The notes: generated by a model from the letters alone, not told the origin. DNA of 30,106 nt from an uncultured Mesoterricola sp. (GCA_964479495.1 CAYZND010000003.1:1-30106); one strand, 5' to 3'; counted from the stretch's first letter, positions 15,643 through 25,545 are shown. Numbers and translations are program-made.

Positions 15643-17670
15643 ATGAAGAAGGTCGTGGTGCTCAGCATCGGGAAGCTGGCGGGGGACGTCATCGTCGGTC
15701 AGATCCGGCGCTTCTTCCGCGACACCGTGGCCGTCGAGCGCTACTGCCTCCATGATGAGTTGGACTTCTCCCCGGATGAAGTGATCGCGGTGCTGACGGG
15801 AGAGCAGGCCAAGGCGAGGCCCAGGGTGATGGAGATGATCCGGGCGGGGATGGACTACCTCATCGCCCGGCGGGCCATCGACTACACGCGCATCCAGGAT
15901 GTGCTCGCCCTGCCCGATGGCATGGACGTGCTCCTGGTGAACGACTACGAGTCCAGCACGAATGCGGCCATCGACCACCTCAAGCGCGTGGGGCTGGATC
16001 ATGTGAACTACTTCCCCTACTACCCGGGCATTTCCGACTACAAGCCTCTCAAGGTGGCCATCACGCCCGGGGAGCCGACACTCATGCCCTCCTGCGTGGA
16101 GAAGTTCATCGACATCGGCACCCGGCAAGCGGACATCTCCACCATCGTGGAGCTCGTACAGCGCCTGGGCCTGATGGAGAAGCTGGGGGACTCCATCTCC
16201 TCCCAGCATCTGCGCGAGATCACGCGGCTGCTCCGGGAGATCGATCAGGCGGGCAAGCGGGTCTCCCACATGCGGGACACCCTTCAGGTGCTCGCGGACT
16301 ACGCGCCGAACGGCATCCTCTACACGGATCTCTCGGGCCGCATCCTGCTCGGCAACCACACCATGGGCACGGTCCTGCGCATGGAGCCGGAAGCCATGAC
16401 CGACCGGCTCATCACGGACATCGTGCCCGGGATGCCGACCTCCCCGGAGGCCCTGGAGTCGAGCACGGTCCTCTCCATCGGCGGCCAGGAGATGGTGGTG
16501 TGGGAGAAGCCCGTGAAGCAGGACGAGGCCATCGTCGGCCACATCTATGTCTTCGAGACCAGCCACACCATCCAGACCCTGGAATACGAGCTGCGGCGGA
16601 AGGCGCGCAAGCTGGAGCACGAGGCGCGCTACACCTTCCACGACATCCTGAGCAAGAGCGCCCAGATGGACCGGGTCTTGGCCTATGCCAAGCGGGTGTC
16701 CCAGAGTGACTCCACCATCCTGATCCAAGGCGAGAGCGGCACCGGCAAGGAGCTCTTCGCCCAGGCCATCCACAATGCCTCCAAGCGACGGCAGGGGCCC
16801 TTCGTGCCCGTGAACTTCGCGGCCTTTCCCCAGAGCCTCCTGGAAAGCGAGCTCTTCGGCTACGAGGATGGCGCCTTCACGGGAGCACGAAAAGGCGGGC
16901 GACGGGGCCTGTTCGAAGAAGCCCACGGGGGCACCATCTTCCTTGACGAGATCGGGGACGCACCGCTGGAGTTTCAGGTGCGGTTGCTGCGGGTGCTCCA
17001 GGAGCGTCAGGTTCGCCCCGTGGGTGGCCGCAAGCAGGTGCCCATCGATGTGCGCGTCATCGCCGCCACCCACAAGGATCTCGCTGCGGAGGTGAAGCAG
17101 GGGAACTTTCGCGAGGACCTCTACTACCGTCTCAGCGTCCTGCCCTTGCGCATGCCCAGCCTGCGGGAGCGGCGGGAGGATGTACCGCTGCTCATGGAAC
17201 AGTTCATCCGGCGCTTCAGCCACGGACGGCTCGCCAAGGCCAGCGCGGTCATGACCCCGGAGACCTTGGAGCATCTCTGCGGTTACGCATGGCCCGGCAA
17301 CATCCGGCAGCTCATGAATGTGGTCGAGTTCCTGATGCACCTCCGGGAGGACCACAAGCTGGTGCAGATGGAGGATCTGCCGGAGTACTTGCTGCAGGAA
17401 GAGCCCGTGAAGGATCAGCAGCTGGTGCACGAGCTGCTGGGACCGGACATGGCATGGGTCCTGAGGAAGTTCTGGGAGCATGGCCACATCGGACGGCGCC
17501 ACCTCGCGCAGCTGGCGGTCCGTGAGCAACCCCATCTCACCGAGGGCATGATTCGTGGCTTGCTGCAGACGACGGAATCCCTGGGACTGACCAAATCGGG
17601 CAAGGGGAGGACAGGGTCGGCCATCACCGAAAAGGGGAAGCGAGCAGCAGACAAATGGGCAATAGGGTGA
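15643..17670 (+). CDS. Sigma54-dependent enhancer-binding protein (unknown N-domain, PAS-like domain, AAA+, atypical C-terminal DNA-binding domain)
   Basis: Walker A GESGTGKE, ESELFGYEDGAFTGA, Walker B FLDEIG, RVIAAT, FREDLYYRL, WPGNIRQL. C-terminus GRRHLAQ..EGMIRGLL..GRTGSAIT is winged-helix-like rather than Fis-like. Confidence 0.93.
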   Translation: MKKVVVLSIGKLAGDVIVGQIRRFFRDTVAVERYCLHDELDFSPDEVIAVLTGEQAKARPRVMEMIRAGMDYLIARRAIDYTRIQDVLALPDGMDVLLVNDYESSTNAAIDHLKRVGLDHVNYFPYYPGISDYKPLKVAITPGEPTLMPSCVEKFIDIGTRQADISTIVELVQRLGLMEKLGDSISSQHLREITRLLREIDQAGKRVSHMRDTLQVLADYAPNGILYTDLSGRILLGNHTMGTVLRMEPEAMTDRLITDIVPGMPTSPEALESSTVLSIGGQEMVVWEKPVKQDEAIVGHIYVFETSHTIQTLEYELRRKARKLEHEARYTFHDILSKSAQMDRVLAYAKRVSQSDSTILIQGESGTGKELFAQAIHNASKRRQGPFVPVNFAAFPQSLLESELFGYEDGAFTGARKGGRRGLFEEAHGGTIFLDEIGDAPLEFQVRLLRVLQERQVRPVGGRKQVPIDVRVIAATHKDLAAEVKQGNFREDLYYRLSVLPLRMPSLRERREDVPLLMEQFIRRFSHGRLAKASAVMTPETLEHLCGYAWPGNIRQLMNVVEFLMHLREDHKLVQMEDLPEYLLQEEPVKDQQLVHELLGPDMAWVLRKFWEHGHIGRRHLAQLAVREQPHLTEGMIRGLLQTTESLGLTKSGKGRTGSAITEKGKRAADKWAIG

Positions 17671-17773
17671 ATAAAAGGGTAAAACATTAACCCATATCAA
17701 CCGGTGGGACGACCATTGGCTTCGGGGAGCATGGCGATGCCCCTTGGAGACTCATGATTGAAACATCAAGCGG

Positions 17774-17806
17774 CACTTTCGTTCCTCGCCTGAGTGAACG
17801 AAAGTG
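17774..17806. promoter_or_regulatory. Inverted repeat upstream of the iadA sigma54 promoter (candidate activator site or hairpin)
   Basis: Perfect 11-bp arms CACTTTCGTTC / GAACGAAAGTG with an 11-nt spacer, ending 59 bp before the -24 box. Confidence 0.45.
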
Positions 17807-17864
17807 GCGCCTGTAGGGGGTTTGGGAGATCCTCCCGGGAAGTCCATCGGGAGGACGAGCCCCC

Positions 17865-17880
17865 TGGCGCCGATCTTGCA
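17865..17880 (+). promoter_or_regulatory. Sigma54 (-24/-12) promoter of iadA
   Basis: TGGCGCCGATCTTGCA has exact GG-N10-GC spacing and TTGCA, 63 nt before the ATG at 17944, directly downstream of a bEBP gene. Confidence 0.85.
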
Positions 17881-17943
17881 TTCCGGTGCGAAAGCCTGGT
17901 GTTGAACGATCGTCGTTTCCGCTGCTGCCAAGGAGTCTTGTTG

Positions 17944-19206
17944 ATGAGTGCCGTTTCCCGCGATGCGTCCATCTTGAAGTTGATCGAAGGACCCGACATC
18001 TATGCTCCGGAATTCCTGGGACCCATGAACGTGCTGGTCGCGGGCGATGTCATTGCGGTGGTTCAACGGGAGCCGATCCGTGTAGGAAACCTGGAGGTGG
18101 AGGTCATCGATGGCCGGGGGAAGTGCCTCGTCCCGGGCTTCATCGACGGCCATGTCCATCTCCTCGGGGGGGGCGGCGAAGGGGGCTACGCCTCACGCAC
18201 GCCGGAGATCATGCTCACGGACATCACCACGGGGGGCGTCACCACGGTGATCGGCTGCCTGGGAACCGACGGCACCACCCGGACCATGGCCAACCTGGTG
18301 GCGAAAGCCCGGGGGCTGGAAGCCGAGGGGATCACCACCCACATCTACACAGGCTCCTACCAGGTTCCCGTTCCGACGGTGACCGGCTCCATCCTGGATG
18401 ACATCGTGCTCATCGACAAGGTTCTTGGCGTGGGCGAGGTGGCCCTGTCCGATCATCGCTCCTCCCAGCCCACGTTCGACGAGTTCGCACGGATCGCTGC
18501 GGCGGCCCGGGTCGGCGGGATGCTCTCCGGAAAAGCCGGTGTGGTCAACGTCCACATGGGCGATGGGGAGCGGCTGCTGTCCATGATCGAGCGGGTCATC
18601 GGTGAAACGGAGATCCCCGCCAAGCACTTCATCCCCACACACATCAACCGGAACAGCCGGCTCTTCGAAGCGGGGATGGCCTATGCCAAGCAGGATGGCG
18701 GGAAGGGTCGCTACATCGATCTGACGACGAGTTCCGTGCCTGACGATCCGAACCGCTCCTGCGGGGCTGCCCTGAAGCGGCTCCTGGAGGCCGGGGTGTC
18801 GATCCACAGCATCAGCTTCAGCTCCGATGGCCAAGGTAGCCTGCCGATCTTCAATGAGGCCAGGGAATACATGGGGTTGGGCGTGGGCAAGGTGTCCACG
18901 CTCTTTGCGGAAGTCAAGAAGGCCATCCGGGTCCATGGCGTGCCATTGGAGGAGGCGATCCGCACGATCACCTCGACACCCGCCACCTATCTTGGCCTCT
19001 CCTCCAAAGGGGCGATCCGTGTGGGCGCCGATGCGGACCTCGTGCTGCTGGATCCCGACTTCGAGATCGATACGGTCCTGGCCCGCGGCCAGGTGATGGT
19101 GCGGGGACACCGGATCCAGCGTTTCGGTACCTTCGAGCGGGACGTGATGAACAACCTCGAGTCCAAGAGAGGATTCATGGAGAGCCGGCAACGGACCTGC
19201 GGTTAA
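17944..19206 (+). CDS. iadA: Isoaspartyl dipeptidase (beta-aspartyl peptidase, amidohydrolase family)
   Basis: PGFIDGHVHLLGGGGEGG..SRTPE, GCLGTDG, GEVALSDHRSSQP, VHMGDG, PTHINR, SSDGQGSLP, GADADL, GTFE. AGGAG RBS. Confidence 0.95.
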   Translation: MSAVSRDASILKLIEGPDIYAPEFLGPMNVLVAGDVIAVVQREPIRVGNLEVEVIDGRGKCLVPGFIDGHVHLLGGGGEGGYASRTPEIMLTDITTGGVTTVIGCLGTDGTTRTMANLVAKARGLEAEGITTHIYTGSYQVPVPTVTGSILDDIVLIDKVLGVGEVALSDHRSSQPTFDEFARIAAAARVGGMLSGKAGVVNVHMGDGERLLSMIERVIGETEIPAKHFIPTHINRNSRLFEAGMAYAKQDGGKGRYIDLTTSSVPDDPNRSCGAALKRLLEAGVSIHSISFSSDGQGSLPIFNEAREYMGLGVGKVSTLFAEVKKAIRVHGVPLEEAIRTITSTPATYLGLSSKGAIRVGADADLVLLDPDFEIDTVLARGQVMVRGHRIQRFGTFERDVMNNLESKRGFMESRQRTCG

Positions 19207-19319
19207 AAACAGGCATGATGTCCAGTCCGGAGGCTGAAAGCACCAGGATGCTGTGATTAATTCATAATTGTTAACGAGCGCTTGCGTCTCTGTACTTGAG
19301 TCCACGGCGTTCGCCCCCT

Positions 19320-19335
19320 TGGCATCCCTCTTGCT
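19320..19335 (+). promoter_or_regulatory. Sigma54 (-24/-12) promoter of the DUF3798 ABC operon
   Basis: TGGCATCCCTCTTGCT has GG-N10-GC spacing and is near consensus, 54 nt before the ATG at 19390. An AT-rich tract lies at about 19256-19275. Confidence 0.87.
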
Positions 19336-19389
19336 CTTCTGTCTTTCTAATCCCGATCCATCCTTCGGTGGAACTTTCTAGGAGGCTCT

Positions 19390-20610
19390 ATGATGAGCGT
19401 ACGTAAGGCGATGGCGCGGTTCGCGCTCGCCCTTTGCGTGGCTGCGCCGGGCACCATGGCGATGGCCGCGGCCAAGTACCACGTGGGAATCGTCACCGGC
19501 ACGGTGAGCCAGAGCGAGGATGACCTCCGCGGCGCCGAAGCCATGATCAAGGAATACGGCGACGTGAAGAACGGGGGCATGATCCAGCACCTGACCTACC
19601 CCAACAACTTCATGGCCGAACAGCAGACCACGATCTCCCAGATCGTGTCCCTCGCCAATGACCCGCTGATGAAGGCGATCGTCATGAACCAGGCCGTGCC
19701 GGGCGCCGCCGAAGGCTTCCGCCGCGTGCGCGAGATGCGCCCCGACATCCTCCTGCTGGGCGGCGTGCCCCAGGAAGATCCCCTCGTCGTCGCCAAGACC
19801 GCCGACCTGATCATGCGCAACGACTTCGTGTCCGCGGGCTACCGCGTGATCTGGGCCGCCAAGCAGCTCGGCGCCAAGACCTTCGTGCACATCTCCTTCC
19901 CCCGCCACATGAGCGTGGAGACCCTGACCCGCCGCCGGATGATCTTCGAGCAGGCCTGCAACGACCTGGGCATCAAGTTCGTGTTCGAGACCGCTCCCGA
20001 TCCGACCTCCGATGTGGGCATCGTCGGCGCCCAGCAGTTCATGCTCGAGAACGTGCCCAAGTGGGTGGCCAAGTACGGCAAGGACGCCTGCTTCTACGCC
20101 ACCAACGACGCCCACACCGAGCCCCTCATCCGTCAGGTCGTGGAATACGGCGGCATCTTCGTGGAAGCCAGCCTTCCCTCCCCGCTGCTGGGCTACCCCG
20201 GCGCCCTCGGCATCGACCTCAAGGCCGAGAAGGGCGACTTCCCCGCCATCATGAAGAAGGTTGAAGCGGCCGTGGTCGCCAAGGGCGGCAAGGGTCGGCT
20301 CGGCACCTGGTCCTACTCCTTCGGCTACAGTGCCACCGTGGGCCTCACCCAGCACGCCATGAACGTGGTGGAAGGCAAGTCGAAGATGACCAACATGAAG
20401 GACATCTTCAAGGCCTTCGCCAAGTACACCCCCGGCGCCAAGTGGGGCGGCTCCTACTACGTGGACGCCTCCACCGGCGTGAAGCTGGAGAACTTCGTGC
20501 TGCTGCTCCAGGACACCTACATCTTCGGCAAGGGCTACATCAAGTCCGCCGAGGTCAAGGTGCCCGAGAAGTACCTCAAGATCTCTTCCGGCCTCAAGAA
20601 GAAGCCGTAA
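19390..20610 (+). CDS. DUF3798-family periplasmic substrate-binding protein
   Basis: Signal peptide; YHVGIVTGTVSQSEDDLRGAE, TYPNNFMAE, HISFPRH, APDPTSDVG..GAQQF, TNDAHTEPL. AGGAGG RBS; first gene of an ABC operon. Confidence 0.88.
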   Translation: MMSVRKAMARFALALCVAAPGTMAMAAAKYHVGIVTGTVSQSEDDLRGAEAMIKEYGDVKNGGMIQHLTYPNNFMAEQQTTISQIVSLANDPLMKAIVMNQAVPGAAEGFRRVREMRPDILLLGGVPQEDPLVVAKTADLIMRNDFVSAGYRVIWAAKQLGAKTFVHISFPRHMSVETLTRRRMIFEQACNDLGIKFVFETAPDPTSDVGIVGAQQFMLENVPKWVAKYGKDACFYATNDAHTEPLIRQVVEYGGIFVEASLPSPLLGYPGALGIDLKAEKGDFPAIMKKVEAAVVAKGGKGRLGTWSYSFGYSATVGLTQHAMNVVEGKSKMTNMKDIFKAFAKYTPGAKWGGSYYVDASTGVKLENFVLLLQDTYIFGKGYIKSAEVKVPEKYLKISSGLKKKP

Positions 20611-20639
20611 CACGCATCAGCCTCAACAGCCGGCGCACC

Positions 20640-20663
20640 GGGGGCAGCCTTTTGGCTGCCCCC
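20640..20663 (+). other. Intercistronic stem-loop between binding-protein and ATPase genes
   Basis: Perfect 10-bp stem GGGGGCAGCC / GGCTGCCCCC with a TTTT loop and no downstream U-tract. Confidence 0.6.
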
Positions 20664-20695
20664 GCCGCGGCGGCCTCCTCACGCGGAAGGAATCA

Positions 20696-22312
20696 ATGGA
20701 AGCGGTACCGATCCTCAGTTTGCGGAACATCGGAAAGGCCTTCTACGAGAACCGGGTCCTGGCGGATGTCTCCTTCGACGTGGCGCCCGGCGAGATCATC
20801 GGTCTCGTGGGAGAGAACGGGGCGGGCAAGTCCACCCTCATGAAGATCCTCTTCGGCATGCCCGTGATCCGGGAGACCGGCGGATTCGAGGGCAGCATCC
20901 TGATCGATGGGAAGGAAGTGGACTTCCGCACGCCCTTCGATGCGCTGGATGCGGGCATCGGCATGGTCCACCAGGAGTTCTCCCTCATCCCCGGCTTCAC
21001 GACGACGGAGAACATCCTCCTCAACCGCGAGTCCTTCCAGAACTCCATCCTCATCGACATCTTCGGCCCCCGCATCAGCGCCCTGGACCGCATGACCATG
21101 GAGAGCCGCTCCAAGAAGGCCATCGACAAGCTGGGCGTCACCCTCGACCCCAACATGCTCATCAAGGAGATGCCCGTCGGACACAAGCAGTTCACGGAGA
21201 TCGCGCGGGAGCTCGGGCGCGAGAACGTGAAGCTGATCGTGCTGGACGAACCCACGGCCGTGCTCACGGAAAGCGAGGCGGAAACCCTGCTCGCCTCCCT
21301 GCGCATCCTCTCGGCGGAAGGCATCGCCATCATCTTCATCTCCCACCGGCTCCGCGAGGTCGTGGAGCTGTGTCACCGCGTGGTGGTGCTGCGGGACGGC
21401 CACCTCGTCAAGGACTACCCGGCCAAGGGGACCACCACCAAGGAGATCGCCTCCCTCATGGTGGGCCGCAGGATGGAGAGTGCCGCCGAGGAGACTCACC
21501 GCAAGGACATCGGCAGCGGATCCGTCCTGACCGTCGAGAAGCTCTGGGTCGACATGCCCGGTGAGCGGGTCCGGAGCGTGGACCTGGACATCAAGCAGGG
21601 CGAGATCTTCGGGATCGGCGGCCTGGCGGGGCAGGGGAAGCTCGGCATTCCCAACGGCCTCATGGGGCTCTACCCGGCTGGCGGCACCGTGACCCTGCAC
21701 GGGCAGCCGGTCCCCCTGAACGCTCCCCGCGCGGTGCTGGAGCGCAAGATGGCCTTCGTGTCCGAGGACCGGCGCGGGGTCGGCCTGCTCCTGGACGAGG
21801 GCATCGACTGGAACATCGCCTTCACCGCCATGCAGGTGCAGGACAAGTATGTGAAGCCCATCCTGGGCGGCCTGTTCCTGTGGCGGTCCGACTCCGCCAT
21901 GGTGGACCTGGCGAAGGAGTACATCGACCTCCTGGAGATCAAGTGCACCGGTCCGGGCCAGCGGGCGGGAACCGTCTCCGGGGGCAACCAGCAGAAGGTG
22001 TGCCTGGCCAAGGCCTTCGCCCTGCGTCCGGACCTGCTGTTCGTGTCCGAGCCCACCCGGGGCATCGACATCGGCGCCAAGCACCTGGTGCTCGACACCC
22101 TCCGGAAGTACAACCGCGAGTATGGAACGACCATCGTGATGATCTCCAGTGAGCTGGAGGAGCTGCGCTCCATCTGCGACCGGATCGGCATCGTCTACGA
22201 AGGCCGCATCGAAGGGATCCTCCCGAGCACGGCTCCCATCGAGGAATTCGGCATCCTGATGGCTGGCGCGGACAAGGATGTAGCACCGGCTGTGGCCGGC
22301 GGAGGGAACTGA
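20696..22312 (+). CDS. ABC transporter ATP-binding protein, tandem-domain sugar (RbsA/MglA-like) type
   Basis: GENGAGKS, VHQE, LDEPT, ISHRL in domain 1; VSEDRR, SGGNQQKV, EPTRGIDIGAK, ISSELEEL in domain 2. Confidence 0.93.
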   Translation: MEAVPILSLRNIGKAFYENRVLADVSFDVAPGEIIGLVGENGAGKSTLMKILFGMPVIRETGGFEGSILIDGKEVDFRTPFDALDAGIGMVHQEFSLIPGFTTTENILLNRESFQNSILIDIFGPRISALDRMTMESRSKKAIDKLGVTLDPNMLIKEMPVGHKQFTEIARELGRENVKLIVLDEPTAVLTESEAETLLASLRILSAEGIAIIFISHRLREVVELCHRVVVLRDGHLVKDYPAKGTTTKEIASLMVGRRMESAAEETHRKDIGSGSVLTVEKLWVDMPGERVRSVDLDIKQGEIFGIGGLAGQGKLGIPNGLMGLYPAGGTVTLHGQPVPLNAPRAVLERKMAFVSEDRRGVGLLLDEGIDWNIAFTAMQVQDKYVKPILGGLFLWRSDSAMVDLAKEYIDLLEIKCTGPGQRAGTVSGGNQQKVCLAKAFALRPDLLFVSEPTRGIDIGAKHLVLDTLRKYNREYGTTIVMISSELEELRSICDRIGIVYEGRIEGILPSTAPIEEFGILMAGADKDVAPAVAGGGN

Positions 22313-22314
22313 AC

Positions 22315-23355
22315 ATGGAAGGCCTCAAGCGTTTCATCGCCGACTTCGGTCTGCCGCGGCTCATCATCGCCGTATTCCTCTTCCTGCTGTTCGCCGTCGC
22401 CCCCTTCGTGGGAGTGAGCCTTCCGGCCGCCATCTCCGACACGCTGATCCGCGTCGGCATGAACGGCATCATGGTCCTGGCCATGATCCCCATGATCCAG
22501 TCGGGCTGCGGCCTGAACTTCGGTCTCTCCCTGGGAGTCATCGCAGGCCTCCTGGGTTCCACCATCAGCATCGAGATGGGACTGGTGGGCCTCCTGGGAT
22601 TCCTGATGGCCGTGCTGCTCTCGCAGGGGTTTGGGGCGGCCTTCGGTTTCGGCTATGGCAAGCTGCTCAACCGCGTCAAGGGCGGCGAGATGATGATCGC
22701 CACCTACGTGGGCTTCTCCTCCGTGATGATCATGTCCATCGCCTGGCTGGTGCTGCCCTACAAGAGCCCCACCATGATCTGGGGGTTCGCGGGCACGGGG
22801 CTGCGGACCACCATCTCCGTGGAGGGCTTCTGGCGGCACATCCTGGATGACTTCCTGGCCATCCAGATCGCGGACTTCAAGTTCCCCACGGGCGCGATCC
22901 TGGTGTTCCTGCTGGTGGCGCTGGCCGTCTGGGCCTTCTTCCATCTGAAGCTGGGCACCGCGGTCACGGCGGTGGGCTCCAACCCGATCTACGCCAAGGC
23001 CTCGGGCATCAGCGTCAACAAGATGCGCATCGTCAGCGTCATGATGTCCACCATGCTCGGCGCCCTCGGGATCGTCGTCTTCCAGCAGAGCTTCGGCTTC
23101 ATCCAGCTCTACGACGGTCCCCTCTACATGGCCTTCCCGGCAGTTGCGGCGATCCTCATCGGCGGCGCCTCGGTGAACAAGGCGACGCTGACGCACGTCT
23201 TCCTCGGCACGCTGCTCTACCAGGGCATCCTCACCATGACCCCGTCCATCTTCAACGCCGTCATGAAGGTGGACATGTCGGACGTCATCCGGATCATCGT
23301 CTCCAACGGCATGATCCTCTACGCGCTGACCCGCAAGACGAAGGTGGCGAAATGA
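22315..23355 (+). CDS. ABC transporter permease (BPD_transp_2-like)
   Basis: Multiple TM helices, GLNFGLSLG, KLGTAVTAVGSN..A.ASGI, PAVAAILIGG. Confidence 0.9.
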   Translation: MEGLKRFIADFGLPRLIIAVFLFLLFAVAPFVGVSLPAAISDTLIRVGMNGIMVLAMIPMIQSGCGLNFGLSLGVIAGLLGSTISIEMGLVGLLGFLMAVLLSQGFGAAFGFGYGKLLNRVKGGEMMIATYVGFSSVMIMSIAWLVLPYKSPTMIWGFAGTGLRTTISVEGFWRHILDDFLAIQIADFKFPTGAILVFLLVALAVWAFFHLKLGTAVTAVGSNPIYAKASGISVNKMRIVSVMMSTMLGALGIVVFQQSFGFIQLYDGPLYMAFPAVAAILIGGASVNKATLTHVFLGTLLYQGILTMTPSIFNAVMKVDMSDVIRIIVSNGMILYALTRKTKVAK

Positions 23356-24488
23356 ATTCCAAGCTCCGGCTCTTCCTCATCGAGAACGCGGTCGTCATTC
23401 TCTTCATCATCCTCATCGCCTTCGCCATCCCCGTTTCCGAGCTCCCGGCAGGCTTCCTGCTGCAGGAGATCCTGATGCGGATCGGTCCCAATGCCTTCCT
23501 GGTGATCGCACTCCTGCTCCCGATCATGGCGGGCATGGGCCTGAACTTCGGCATGGTGCTTGGGGCCATGGCAGGCCAGATCGGACTCATCTTCATCACG
23601 GACTGGGGCATCGTGGGCATCCCCGGTGTGCTGCTCGCCATGATCATCTCGCTGCCCATCTCGGTCTTCCTGGGCTGGGTCTGCGGTTCGATCATGAACC
23701 TAGCCAAGGGTCGCGAGATGGTGACGGGCTTCATCCTGGCCTTCTTCATGAACGGCATCTACATGATCGTCGTCCTCTACGCCATGGGCAGCATCATCCC
23801 CATCCTGAACCCGGAATTGCTGCTGTCCCGCGGCTACGGCATCCGCAACGTGGTGGGCCTGGATGGCGTGCGGCAGTCCCTGGACAACCTCATCCCCCTG
23901 AAGTTCAACCTGTCCTTCCTCACGCCTCCGTTCGTCAAGGTGCCCATCTTCTGCTTCGTCATCGTGGCCCTGGTCTGCCTGTTCATCGTCTGGTTCCGCA
24001 AGACCAAGCTGGGCCAGGACATGCGGGCCGTGGGACAGGATCGGGCCGTGGCGGACGCCGCCGGCATTCCCGTCGAACGCACGCGCATCCTGGCGATCAT
24101 CATCTCCACCGCCCTCGCTGGCATCGGGCAGGTGATCTTCCTGCAGACCATGGGAACCATCAATACGACCGCCTCCCACGAGCAGATCGGCATGTTCTCC
24201 ATCGCCGCGCTGCTGATCGGCGGCGCCTCCGTGACGCGCGCCTCCATCCCCAATGTGCTCATCGGCGTCATCCTGTTCCACCTGCTGTTCCTGGTCTCGC
24301 CCATGGCCGGCAAGAACCTGGTGGGGTCCGCCCAGCTGGGCGAGTTCTTCCGCCAGTCCGTGAGCTACGGCGTCATCGCCGTGGCCCTGGTGCTCTACGA
24401 GTGGAAGCGGCAGACCCAGGAGCATGAGTCCCGCGCGGACCTGCGTGGCGAAACCGAACCGGCCAAGAAGGCGGGAGGTGCCGCATGA
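23352..24488 (+). CDS. ABC transporter permease (second subunit)
   Basis: Multiple TM helices, GLNFGMVLG, TKLGQDMRAVGQD..A.AAGI, FSIAALLIGG. ATGA overlap with the previous gene. Confidence 0.9.
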   Translation: MNSKLRLFLIENAVVILFIILIAFAIPVSELPAGFLLQEILMRIGPNAFLVIALLLPIMAGMGLNFGMVLGAMAGQIGLIFITDWGIVGIPGVLLAMIISLPISVFLGWVCGSIMNLAKGREMVTGFILAFFMNGIYMIVVLYAMGSIIPILNPELLLSRGYGIRNVVGLDGVRQSLDNLIPLKFNLSFLTPPFVKVPIFCFVIVALVCLFIVWFRKTKLGQDMRAVGQDRAVADAAGIPVERTRILAIIISTALAGIGQVIFLQTMGTINTTASHEQIGMFSIAALLIGGASVTRASIPNVLIGVILFHLLFLVSPMAGKNLVGSAQLGEFFRQSVSYGVIAVALVLYEWKRQTQEHESRADLRGETEPAKKAGGAA

Positions 24489-24988
24489 CCCGGCGCAGCC
24501 TCATCCAGCGCAGCGCGGTGTTGCTCGGCCTGATGGGCCTGGCGGTCTTCCTGTTCTACATCGGCAAGGGGCATACCCTCCTGCTGGACACCAACGCCAT
24601 CACCATCAACGGCCAGGAGATCTCCTCCGCCGATAACGTCGAGGTGAGCGTCGACGGGCAGGAGCCCAAGTCCATGGGGCGCGCCGAGCGCACCATGGTC
24701 TCCGTGGGCGGACCCAGCCACACCATCCAGATCGAGGTGATCGACGGGGATGGCCGCAAGGTGGAAGCGAAGTTCACCGTTCCGACCTTCATGGACATGG
24801 CGGTGGTCTCCATCCCGGCGATTCTCGAGAAGGCGCCGCGGGAGCACTGGGTGACCAAGTTCACGCCTCCTCCACCGGAGGAAGCCGCTGCGGAGCAGAT
24901 GGAGATGCAGGACGACACGCCGGTGGCACCCGCGCCGGGGATGGAGCTCAAGCCCACCCCCGAAGCGCCAGCCCCAAAGGCTCCCTGA
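24485..24988 (+). CDS. Membrane-anchored accessory protein of the ABC operon (recalled as DUF6672-like)
   Basis: ATGA-coupled to the permease. One TM helix, then GKGHTLLLD.., a beta-rich domain and a Pro/Glu-rich tail. Family name from memory and unverified. Confidence 0.75.
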   Translation: MTRRSLIQRSAVLLGLMGLAVFLFYIGKGHTLLLDTNAITINGQEISSADNVEVSVDGQEPKSMGRAERTMVSVGGPSHTIQIEVIDGDGRKVEAKFTVPTFMDMAVVSIPAILEKAPREHWVTKFTPPPPEEAAAEQMEMQDDTPVAPAPGMELKPTPEAPAPKAP

Positions 24989-25006: not shown

Positions 25007-25048
25007 ACCTGGGCGGGGAATGGTAACCTTGACGTTTCCCGCCCAGGT
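25007..25048. promoter_or_regulatory. Inverted repeat enclosing an extended -10-like element upstream of the GNAT gene
   Basis: 11-bp arms ACCTGGGCGGG (25007-25017) / CCCGCCCAGGT (25038-25048); the loop contains TGGTAACCT. Confidence 0.4.
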
Positions 25049-25053
25049 GCTCC

Positions 25054-25545
25054 ATGGATTCCACCCTTCAGCCCCTCACCGAGGCGCATCGGCAGGCAGT
25101 CATCGACATCTACAACCATCATGTTGATCACGGCTTCGCCAGCTACCGTGAAGTCCGGTTGCCCTACGAAGCCTTCGATCGGTTCCTGGCCATCGCCAAG
25201 GGGTATCCGGCCTACGTGAATGTGCGGTCCGACGGCGAAGTGGACGGCTTCGGATTCCTCCATGCCTGGCATCCATCCGAGTGCTTCCAGCGCACCGCCG
25301 AGATCACCTATTTCTTCCACCCTGGCGCCACCCGCCAGGGCTCGGGCTCGCGCCTGCTGGCACGGCTGCTGGAGGAGGCTGCGGTCCTGAAGGTCGATCG
25401 CATCCTTGCCAGCATCTCGTCACGGAATCCCGAGAGCATCGCCTTCCACCGCAAGCACGACTTCGTGGAGTGCGGCCGCTTCCCCCAGGTGGGCCACAAA
25501 CACGGCGTGGACTTCGACGTGGTGTGGATGGTCAGGCATCTGTGA
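25054..25545 (+). CDS. GNAT N-acetyltransferase (phosphinothricin/YncA-like)
   Basis: IDIYNHHV..FASYRE, TAEITYF, RQGSGSRLL, NPESIAFHRKHDF..CGRF..VGHKHG..DVVWM. Confidence 0.88.
   Translation: MDSTLQPLTEAHRQAVIDIYNHHVDHGFASYREVRLPYEAFDRFLAIAKGYPAYVNVRSDGEVDGFGFLHAWHPSECFQRTAEITYFFHPGATRQGSGSRLLARLLEEAAVLKVDRILASISSRNPESIAFHRKHDFVECGRFPQVGHKHGVDFDVVWMVRHL

Follow-up and report, generated by a model that had tools for sequence, protein, structure and literature searches.

The Escherichia coli iaaA-gsiABCD operon sets the gene for an isoaspartyl hydrolase before those for an ATP-binding cassette (ABC) importer of an isopeptide-containing peptide; Gsi belongs to the Opp/Dpp family and has an SBP_bac_5 protein. 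Salmonella uses beta-Asp-Leu through peptide permeases, and the binding protein of the Pseudomonas aeruginosa Aot system is of the SBP_bac_3 type. The Aot importer, AotJQMP, brings in beta-Asp-Arg for the hydrolase AotO/CphZ and is controlled by ArgR (PMC9974463). Other gene clusters for cyanophycin scavenging combine cyanophycinase with iadA or iaaA and with amino-acid transporters (PMC10206079). The subject here is a seven-gene cluster at positions 15643–24988 of a 30,106-nucleotide contig of an uncultured Mesoterricola sp. (CAYZND010000003.1; the window, which is the whole 30-kb contig of a 96.7%-complete metagenome-assembled genome, MAG). It joins iadA, for isoaspartyl dipeptidase, to an ABC importer whose solute-binding protein (SBP) belongs to DUF3798 (PF12683). 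The literature searched held no functional study of DUF3798, PF12683, the solved structure 3QI7 or the accessory family DUF6672, in agreement with the initial annotation, which knew of no ligand assigned to DUF3798.

The cluster is a real, conserved unit. All seven genes lie on the + strand, and open-reading-frame listing with Pfam and NCBIfam scans matched each to its stated family, so the co-oriented set first described stands: a bacterial enhancer-binding protein (bEBP; 15643–17670), IadA (17944–19206), the DUF3798 SBP (19390–20610; PF12683 plus PF27194), an ATPase with two fused nucleotide-binding domains (20696–22312; two ABC_tran stretches), two BPD_transp_2 permeases (22315–23355 and 23352–24488, by Pfam), and DUF6672 (24485–24988; PF20377, 131 bits). 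Gene order is the same in the closest relative in the species collection, a Holophaga sp. whose SBP is 94% identical.

By identity, the second gene can be assigned firmly as an isoaspartyl (beta-aspartyl) dipeptidase. Its product matches the TIGR01975 equivalog with 501 bits (cut-off 331; model positions 2–389) and aligns over its full length with the solved IadA structures 7CF6, 8DQN, 5XGW and 1ONW (E values from 2e-105 to 8e-88). In the 7CF6 alignment (E = 2e-105, residues 8–388), the motifs HVH, GGGGEGG, CLGTDG and SSDGQGS are identical; their residues presumably play the same roles as in the E. coli enzyme. The start is likely the ATG at 17944, behind AAGGAG at 17930–17935, and not the GTG at 17794.

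The locus is probably a catabolic uptake unit for beta-aspartyl dipeptides, a proposal about ligand that extends to one clade of DUF3798 proteins, termed clade A. Its periplasmic SBP would bind beta-Asp-X dipeptides, derived either from degraded aged protein or from cyanophycin digested by other members of the community. The SBP would then hand them to a CUT2-like importer made up of two permeases, the fused double ATPase, and a membrane-anchored DUF6672 protein; cytoplasmic IadA would split them into aspartate and an amino acid. The adjacent PrdR-like bEBP may activate a sigma-54 promoter before iadA, probably from a GGGT-N9-ACCC palindrome. The SBP may have its own, higher expression through a second sigma-54 promoter, a leader hairpin, and a further hairpin behind its gene. 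(Within this scheme we infer the ligand, the direction of transport, the activator of the second promoter, and the activator's signal.)

The strongest argument for this substrate comes from the company that clade A keeps. In a tree of 107 SBPs, clade A comprises 16 rows (SH-aLRT, a likelihood-ratio branch support, 100) on the longest inner stem, 0.48, and includes the window SBP together with proteins from Holophagaceae, Rhodocyclaceae, Desulfovibrionaceae, Synergistaceae, three spirochaetes, and a deltaproteobacterial MAG. Every hydrolase-linked SBP falls in this clade. Elsewhere in the family, iadA or iaaA accompanies none of 69 GTDB loci outside clade A and no metagenome locus outside it. 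The bEBP-iadA-SBP arrangement recurs in three Holophagaceae genomes (L033, L037, L041) and in metagenome loci (L013–L015, L031, L032, L114–L116, L118, L124, L125, L127, L136). Rhodocyclaceae have another arrangement. In Ca. Accumulibacter UBA704 (SBP 89% identical) and a Propionivibrio (88%), an Asparaginase_2 gene lies directly upstream, along with a gene for an RpiR regulator (HTH_6 plus SIS); RpiR, IaaA and SBP genes are co-oriented in L034, L117, L119, L130 and L155, and divergent in L035 and L121. The sole NCBIfam match of the Asparaginase_2 protein is the E. coli-type beta-aspartyl peptidase IaaA, and among PDB entries it matches EcAIII best (379 bits; glycosylasparaginases score about 130 bits). 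A third arrangement occurs in Synergistaceae-like contigs, where a second type of IadA occupies two different positions: contig L113 (Synergistaceae) carries a clade-A-type permease, DUF6672 and iadA in that order (TIGR01975, 431 bits), and metagenome contig L133 has iadA directly upstream of the SBP gene (415 bits). The L133 enzyme is 64% identical to that of L113 and 40% identical to the window IadA.

Thus, across at least three lineages and in varied arrangements, two unrelated enzymes that share beta-aspartyl dipeptide hydrolysis adjoin these importers, which favours that substrate. Among clade-A metagenome contigs with enough upstream DNA, nine carry iadA, six iaaA, two RpiR only, and eight none of these; about 60% of evaluable contigs therefore have one or the other hydrolase gene. 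The idea of beta-aspartyl dipeptides, first raised from the window's own iadA, gains independent support from the unrelated IaaA and from the separate IadA lineage, both of them next to clade-A SBP operons 76–90% identical to the window's.

The clade-A transporter also appears to be mobile. SBP identity within the clade runs from 76 to 94% across phyla; the proteins of L034–L040 and L043, from Rhodocyclaceae, Desulfovibrionaceae and Spirochaetota, share 85–89% identity with their Holophaga counterpart. A sample of 250 other genomes from the window's phylum yielded no PF12683. High identity between phyla, combined with this lack of matches in the sampled genomes, points to recent horizontal transfer of the whole transporter.

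The importer is assembled from recognizable parts. The SBP (PF12683, 417 bits against a gathering cut-off of 24.6) bears a Sec-type signal peptide. Its predicted model (mean local confidence, pLDDT, 94) is closest to 3QI7, deposited without a stated function (template-modelling scores 0.77/0.87). The next structural matches, LIVBP-like proteins and allose/ribose-binding proteins, are tied near 0.45, so that no ligand can be transferred from either. Four charged positions separate clade A from the other clades: E126V, N143R, R149A (the arginine is invariant elsewhere), and T152R. These changes, seen at the level of the alignment, would suit an extra carboxylate on the ligand. DUF6672 is a single-pass protein with an N-terminal transmembrane helix at residues ~11–27, and clustering places it directly after the second permease in 47 of 80 loci. 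Co-folding with both permeases scored 0.40, against 0.00 for the best control, and the predicted contact is between the DUF6672 transmembrane helix and permease 2. Of 78 solved complexes, 51 attain the mark used, as do 2 of 108 mismatches; only 5 of the 78 pass at 0.60 or below, so this pass supports the contact weakly. DUF6672 is probably a fifth importer subunit.

Family scans bear out the initial view that the ATPase and permeases are CUT2-like and not of the Opp/Dpp type. The fused double ATPase, two BPD_transp_2 permeases and type-I binding protein make up a CUT2-type architecture, and the Pfam scan of the window genes gave no match to SBP_bac_5, BPD_transp_1 or oligo_HPY. The annotation went on to present this as a sugar-type architecture repurposed; the type was right and the surprise overstated. 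Permeases of the BPD_transp_2 family also occur in importers of amino acids (Liv) and urea, and nucleosides and riboflavin are among the cargoes of CUT2-like systems. The substrate class is another matter: the best NCBIfam matches of the ATPase, xylG/GguA/RbsA-like (xylose, multiple sugars, ribose), reach 347–368 bits and all stay below their cut-offs, no equivalog cut-off is reached, and the genomic neighbours are peptidases. The importer might nonetheless carry a sugar, nucleoside or vitamin in the manner of CUT2/Bmp systems, its adjacency to iadA being fortuitous or purely regulatory. Besides the architecture, the nearest protein-language-model neighbours of the SBP are Bmp/PnrA and sugar-SBP clusters (~0.83, a lead and no more), and most spirochaete DUF3798 operons are solitary, with no catabolic gene beside them. 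Chance is very unlikely to have brought the importer next to isoaspartyl hydrolases on at least three independent occasions, and in the rest of the family it is peptidases, and not enzymes for sugars or nucleosides, that lie nearby. This possibility is very improbable.

Control of the proposed beta-aspartyl unit probably involves sigma-54. The bEBP (Sigma54_activat PF00158, 237 bits) consists of an N-terminal alpha/beta domain (~1–175), a coiled coil, a PAS domain (~224–306), an AAA+ domain, and a winged-helix-like C-terminal tail with weak helix-turn-helix matches. The AAA+ domain carries the Walker A motif GESGTGKE and a GAFTGA loop, as expected of a sigma-54 activator, and rpoN is present in the genome. 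The best NCBIfam match is PrdR (357 bits over residues 201–592, where the equivalog cut-off is 795). For the N-terminal alpha/beta domain there is no Pfam match, and a fold search with the modelled sensor region returned PAS-domain matches only, leaving that domain without an assignment. In the 30-kb window, the sequence TGGCAC-N5-TTGC with at most one mismatch occurs only at 17865–17879 and 19320–19334, each with one mismatch. Two matches against 2.1 expected is chance level. Nevertheless, both lie on the + strand in two short intergenic gaps, 65 and 56 nucleotides before the iadA and SBP start codons, and both are kept at aligned positions in the Holophagaceae loci L033, L037, L041 and L032 (L031 retains the first only). 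Because of position and conservation, and not of match count, both are taken as real sigma-54 promoters, as originally proposed. Upstream of clade-A SBP genes outside Holophagaceae, the second element is absent.

Directly 3' of the bEBP stop codon, at 17677–17693, lies the GGGT-N9-ACCC palindrome, kept in all six Holophagaceae loci, where its distance from the −24 element is −91 or between −175 and −188. Exact matches in the window number two, roughly chance; it is positional conservation, and not count, that makes it the leading candidate for an enhancer of the iadA promoter. Between it and that promoter is an inverted repeat (17767–17813; 18-nucleotide arms, 89% complementary). The repeat-bearing stretch is missing in most orthologous loci, and this accounts for the larger distance from enhancer to promoter in the window and L033.

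The SBP promoter is flanked instead by two other conserved elements. Alignment of the iadA-SBP intergenic region from six loci reveals an AT-rich box with a TTAATT core (19254–19275), ~55 nucleotides upstream of the second −24 element: a candidate operator or architectural-protein site. Downstream, a leader hairpin (UCCAUC-CUUC-GGUGGA, followed by the ribosome-binding site; 19357–19387, + strand) stands at a fixed −33 from the ATG in clade-A SBP leaders, among them the window, L033, L037, L041, L032, L042, L034, L035, L117, L119, L121 and L130. It occurs alike in Holophagaceae, with a sigma-54 promoter, and in Rhodocyclaceae, with no sigma-54 element. Its variants preserve pairing (UCCAUC/GGUGGA, UCCAC/GUGGA, CCACC/GGUGG, UCCAUU/GAUGGA); the single-sequence fold is no better than shuffles (z = −1.2). 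The hairpin may be an mRNA stabilizer or a translational element. A GC-rich 10-bp hairpin without a T tract, read in the sequence between the SBP and ATPase genes (20640–20663, + strand), is probably an intra-operon attenuator or mRNA stabilizer. Contig depth in a sediment metatranscriptome, a rough measure only, is 10–130 for the SBP, 0–3.6 for iadA and 2–9 for the ATPase. The excess over the SBP gene fits a separate promoter and the GC-rich hairpin.

The same logic is used twice in this genome, with unrelated transporter types. A second iadA on contig C117 (L011, 280–9523; 53% identical, TIGR01975 514 bits) is transcribed divergently from the gene of a bEBP paralogue, behind which lies a full peptide ABC importer of the Dpp/Opp type; there, SBP_bac_5, BPD_transp_1 and oligo_HPY do match. 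Further bEBP paralogues of the same architecture, 36–39% identical, lie on contigs C17, C25 and C46 (L160, L161, L162). Their neighbours are gamma-glutamyltransferase (GGT) with a C26 gamma-glutamyl hydrolase, a Liv-type amino-acid ABC system, and methylaspartate ammonia-lyase, which suggests that this activator family serves amino-acid and peptide catabolism in the genome.

Several DUF3798 paralogues also occur in the genome. Positions 3–764 of the window encode a C-terminal DUF3798 fragment that may continue a gene cut at the end of contig C148; the C148 gene lies near proC and a DAO/Pyr_redox_2 pair resembling proline dehydrogenase. On C6, a paralogue is followed by genes for an M24 Xaa-Pro peptidase and a metallo-beta-lactamase-fold protein, and a second complete transporter is encoded on C285 (its ATPase is 69% identical).

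A number of observations weigh against the proposal of a beta-aspartyl dipeptide importer. The first concerns the family as a whole. A 14-sequence alignment was the query for a cross-phylum census of collections with one genome per species, which covered the 80 best DUF3798 loci (at least 60% identity). The SBP-ATPase-permease-permease core is nearly universal among them and DUF6672 is common; iadA is adjacent in only three, all from Holophagaceae. The high co-occurrence looked for across phyla is thus rare family-wide, as had been named in advance as grounds for rejection. With a link in three of 80, any proposal of a ligand has to be confined to a single clade: for clade A the assignment remains viable, and for DUF3798 as a whole it is not supported. 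Even within clade A, the operons L036, L038, L039, L040, L043 and L029 have no adjacent hydrolase gene, and the genomes holding L040 and L043 (MAGs of unknown completeness) yielded neither iadA nor iaaA. No close relative with a bound ligand turned up in the fold search with the SBP. Nor do the two sigma-54 promoters have any recognizable enhancer or activator site in common: the palindrome lies upstream of iadA only, with neither GGGT-N9-ACCC nor anything similar found upstream of the SBP promoter, and common control is therefore unproven. Induction of hydrolase and transporter together by one signal is accordingly a conjecture.

The cyanophycin genes argue in the same direction. The initial annotation had suggested a search for cyanophycinase, and the genome encodes none (best TIGR02069 score 25.9 bits, cut-off 126.6); cphA, for cyanophycin synthetase, is likewise missing (none over cut-off), and neither gene was found in two related Holophagaceae genomes. 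Any link to cyanophycin in Holophagaceae would therefore be cross-feeding. The Rhodocyclaceae genomes of L034 and L036 (G256 and G251) each have two tandem cphA genes (~980 and 770 bits) and no cyanophycinase over cut-off, consistent with the report that Accumulibacter and Propionivibrio encode cphA (bioRxiv 10.1101/2023.08.22.553871).

Another opposing point comes from PepQ, an Xaa-Pro dipeptidase (NF010133, 411 bits, cut-off 339). Its gene closes the operon, 3' of DUF6672, in some Holophagaceae-type loci (L013–L015, L032, L037), and fits a broader dipeptide range. The system might thus be a broad-range importer in a Dpp-like role, with an SBP not specific for beta-aspartyl compounds and with IadA and PepQ as dipeptidases for beta-Asp-X and X-Pro bonds, which general peptidases leave intact. 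In L128, a PepQ gene ends directly before the clade-A SBP gene; the M24 Xaa-Pro peptidase behind a DUF3798 paralogue in the same genome points the same way, as do a distant DUF3798 gene downstream of OppD/OppF-type ATPases and the S41 peptidase and M14 carboxypeptidases that neighbour other clade-A SBPs. Against this, the independently recruited hydrolases are all of isoaspartyl-specific types (IadA twice, IaaA once), PepQ is limited to one Holophagaceae sublineage, and the genome already encodes a Dpp/Opp-type system. A broad-range importer is accordingly judged unlikely, if the most plausible of the alternatives.

The RpiR regulators raise a different objection, since proteins of this family usually sense phosphosugars and would be odd in a dipeptide system. 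They would fit an importer whose cargo is a free amino acid or a beta-aspartyl compound other than a peptide (asparagine, aspartate, or glycosylated or glycated asparagine), with IaaA acting as asparaginase or amidase and RpiR sensing a sugar-derived effector. Asparagine is another substrate of IaaA-family enzymes, the nearest matches of the ATPase and permeases are sugar systems, and in fold the SBP is intermediate between sugar binders and LIVBP-like binders of amino acids. However, IadA is not known to be an asparaginase, the Rhodocyclaceae IaaA is of the EcAIII type and far from the glycosylasparaginases, and clade-A loci with annotated flanks contain no gene for a sugar kinase, isomerase or deglycase. 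Such a ligand seems improbable. Overall, beta-aspartyl dipeptides make a good, testable ligand hypothesis for clade A, one favoured over its competitors with reasonable though far from complete confidence, and not a hypothesis for DUF3798 at large.

The family itself is of modest size: 873 clusters at 50% identity, common in spirochaetes (presumably including Treponema pallidum), Synergistetes, Thermotogae and Clostridia. Conserved neighbours of spirochaete operons outside clade A are uninformative about the ligand: adenylate cyclase, leucyl-tRNA synthetase, an AMP-binding enzyme, and TPR, GGDEF and methyl-accepting chemotaxis proteins. Elsewhere, an AstE-like enzyme and GGT adjoin a DUF3798 gene. 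An AstE/AspA-like gene beside a pair of DUF3798 genes in Rectinema was considered as CphZ and rejected: its PDB matches are Mlr6093 and diaminobutyrate (DABA) deacetylases, with no CphZ at E ≤ 0.001. The neighbourhoods of representatives P0145 and P0156 offered short contigs or uninformative neighbours only. Many DUF3798 representatives (P0121–P0135, P0021, P0059, P0061) are 800–1000 residues long with two matched stretches, a pattern of tandem-duplicated binding modules; some of the long ones carry Peripla_BP_3, and their source labels read LacI/PurR.

Downstream of DUF6672, beyond a hairpin at 25008–25047, is a GNAT acetyltransferase gene (25054–25545). The protein is most like arsinothricin/phosphinothricin N-acetyltransferases (77 bits, below cut-off), and it is kept only in the nearest Holophaga relatives (L033, L116, L118, L152). 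Speculatively, it might detoxify amino-acid analogues imported as peptides.

DUF3798 is a binding-protein family with a solved structure and a blank function. A cheaply testable ligand hypothesis for clade A, together with the clade-specific charged residues, would open it to annotation. If the hypothesis is true, this is a second, unrelated route for scavenging beta-aspartyl dipeptides beside Pseudomonas Aot, a "sugar-type" ABC chassis that carries a peptide, and a factor in the recycling of cyanophycin nitrogen and of isoaspartyl peptides from aged protein in anoxic communities and wastewater sludge. A bolder and quite tentative extension, which we hold to be rather less than an even prospect, is that the five-component DUF3798/DUF6672 importers form an unrecognized class for peptide and isopeptide uptake on a CUT2-like chassis, with SBP clades tuned to beta-Asp-X, X-Pro and gamma-glutamyl compounds. 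Clade A would then be a horizontally mobile importer of beta-aspartyl dipeptides that lets anaerobes of sediments, peat and activated sludge live on their neighbours' cyanophycin and damaged-protein debris.

How does the locus compare with described systems? It does not resemble the Gsi type: that arrangement is matched by the second iadA locus on C117, not by the window locus. With PrdR of Clostridia, the bEBP shares the PAS and AAA+ domains and control of amino-acid catabolism; it scores far below the PrdR equivalog cut-off, and its N-terminal alpha/beta domain is of no Pfam family. With CUT2 importers (RbsABC, XylFGH, and the Bmp/PnrA relatives), the transporter shares the fused ATPase, two BPD_transp_2 permeases and a type-I (cluster B) binding fold; it differs in missing all equivalog cut-offs, in the separate Pfam family of its SBP, in the extra DUF6672, and in its peptidase neighbours. 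Like the cyanophycin-scavenging clusters, clade-A loci group iadA or iaaA with a transporter, in clade A a putative one, for the dipeptide products; unlike them, the window locus and its genome have no cyanophycinase, the transporter is of another type, and the description of those clusters does not mention DUF3798. The aot operon is similar in logic: an ABC importer encoded with a cytoplasmic beta-Asp-Arg hydrolase, for scavenging by an organism that does not make cyanophycin. There, the parts are a polar-amino-acid-type ABC system, the M14/AstE-type CphZ, and ArgR; here, they are a CUT2-like system with DUF6672, a DUF3798 SBP, IadA, and sigma-54 with a bEBP. By its parts, then, the locus resembles a sigma-54-controlled CUT2-like importer that has one more subunit and an SBP of a novel family; by its proposed function, it resembles aot.

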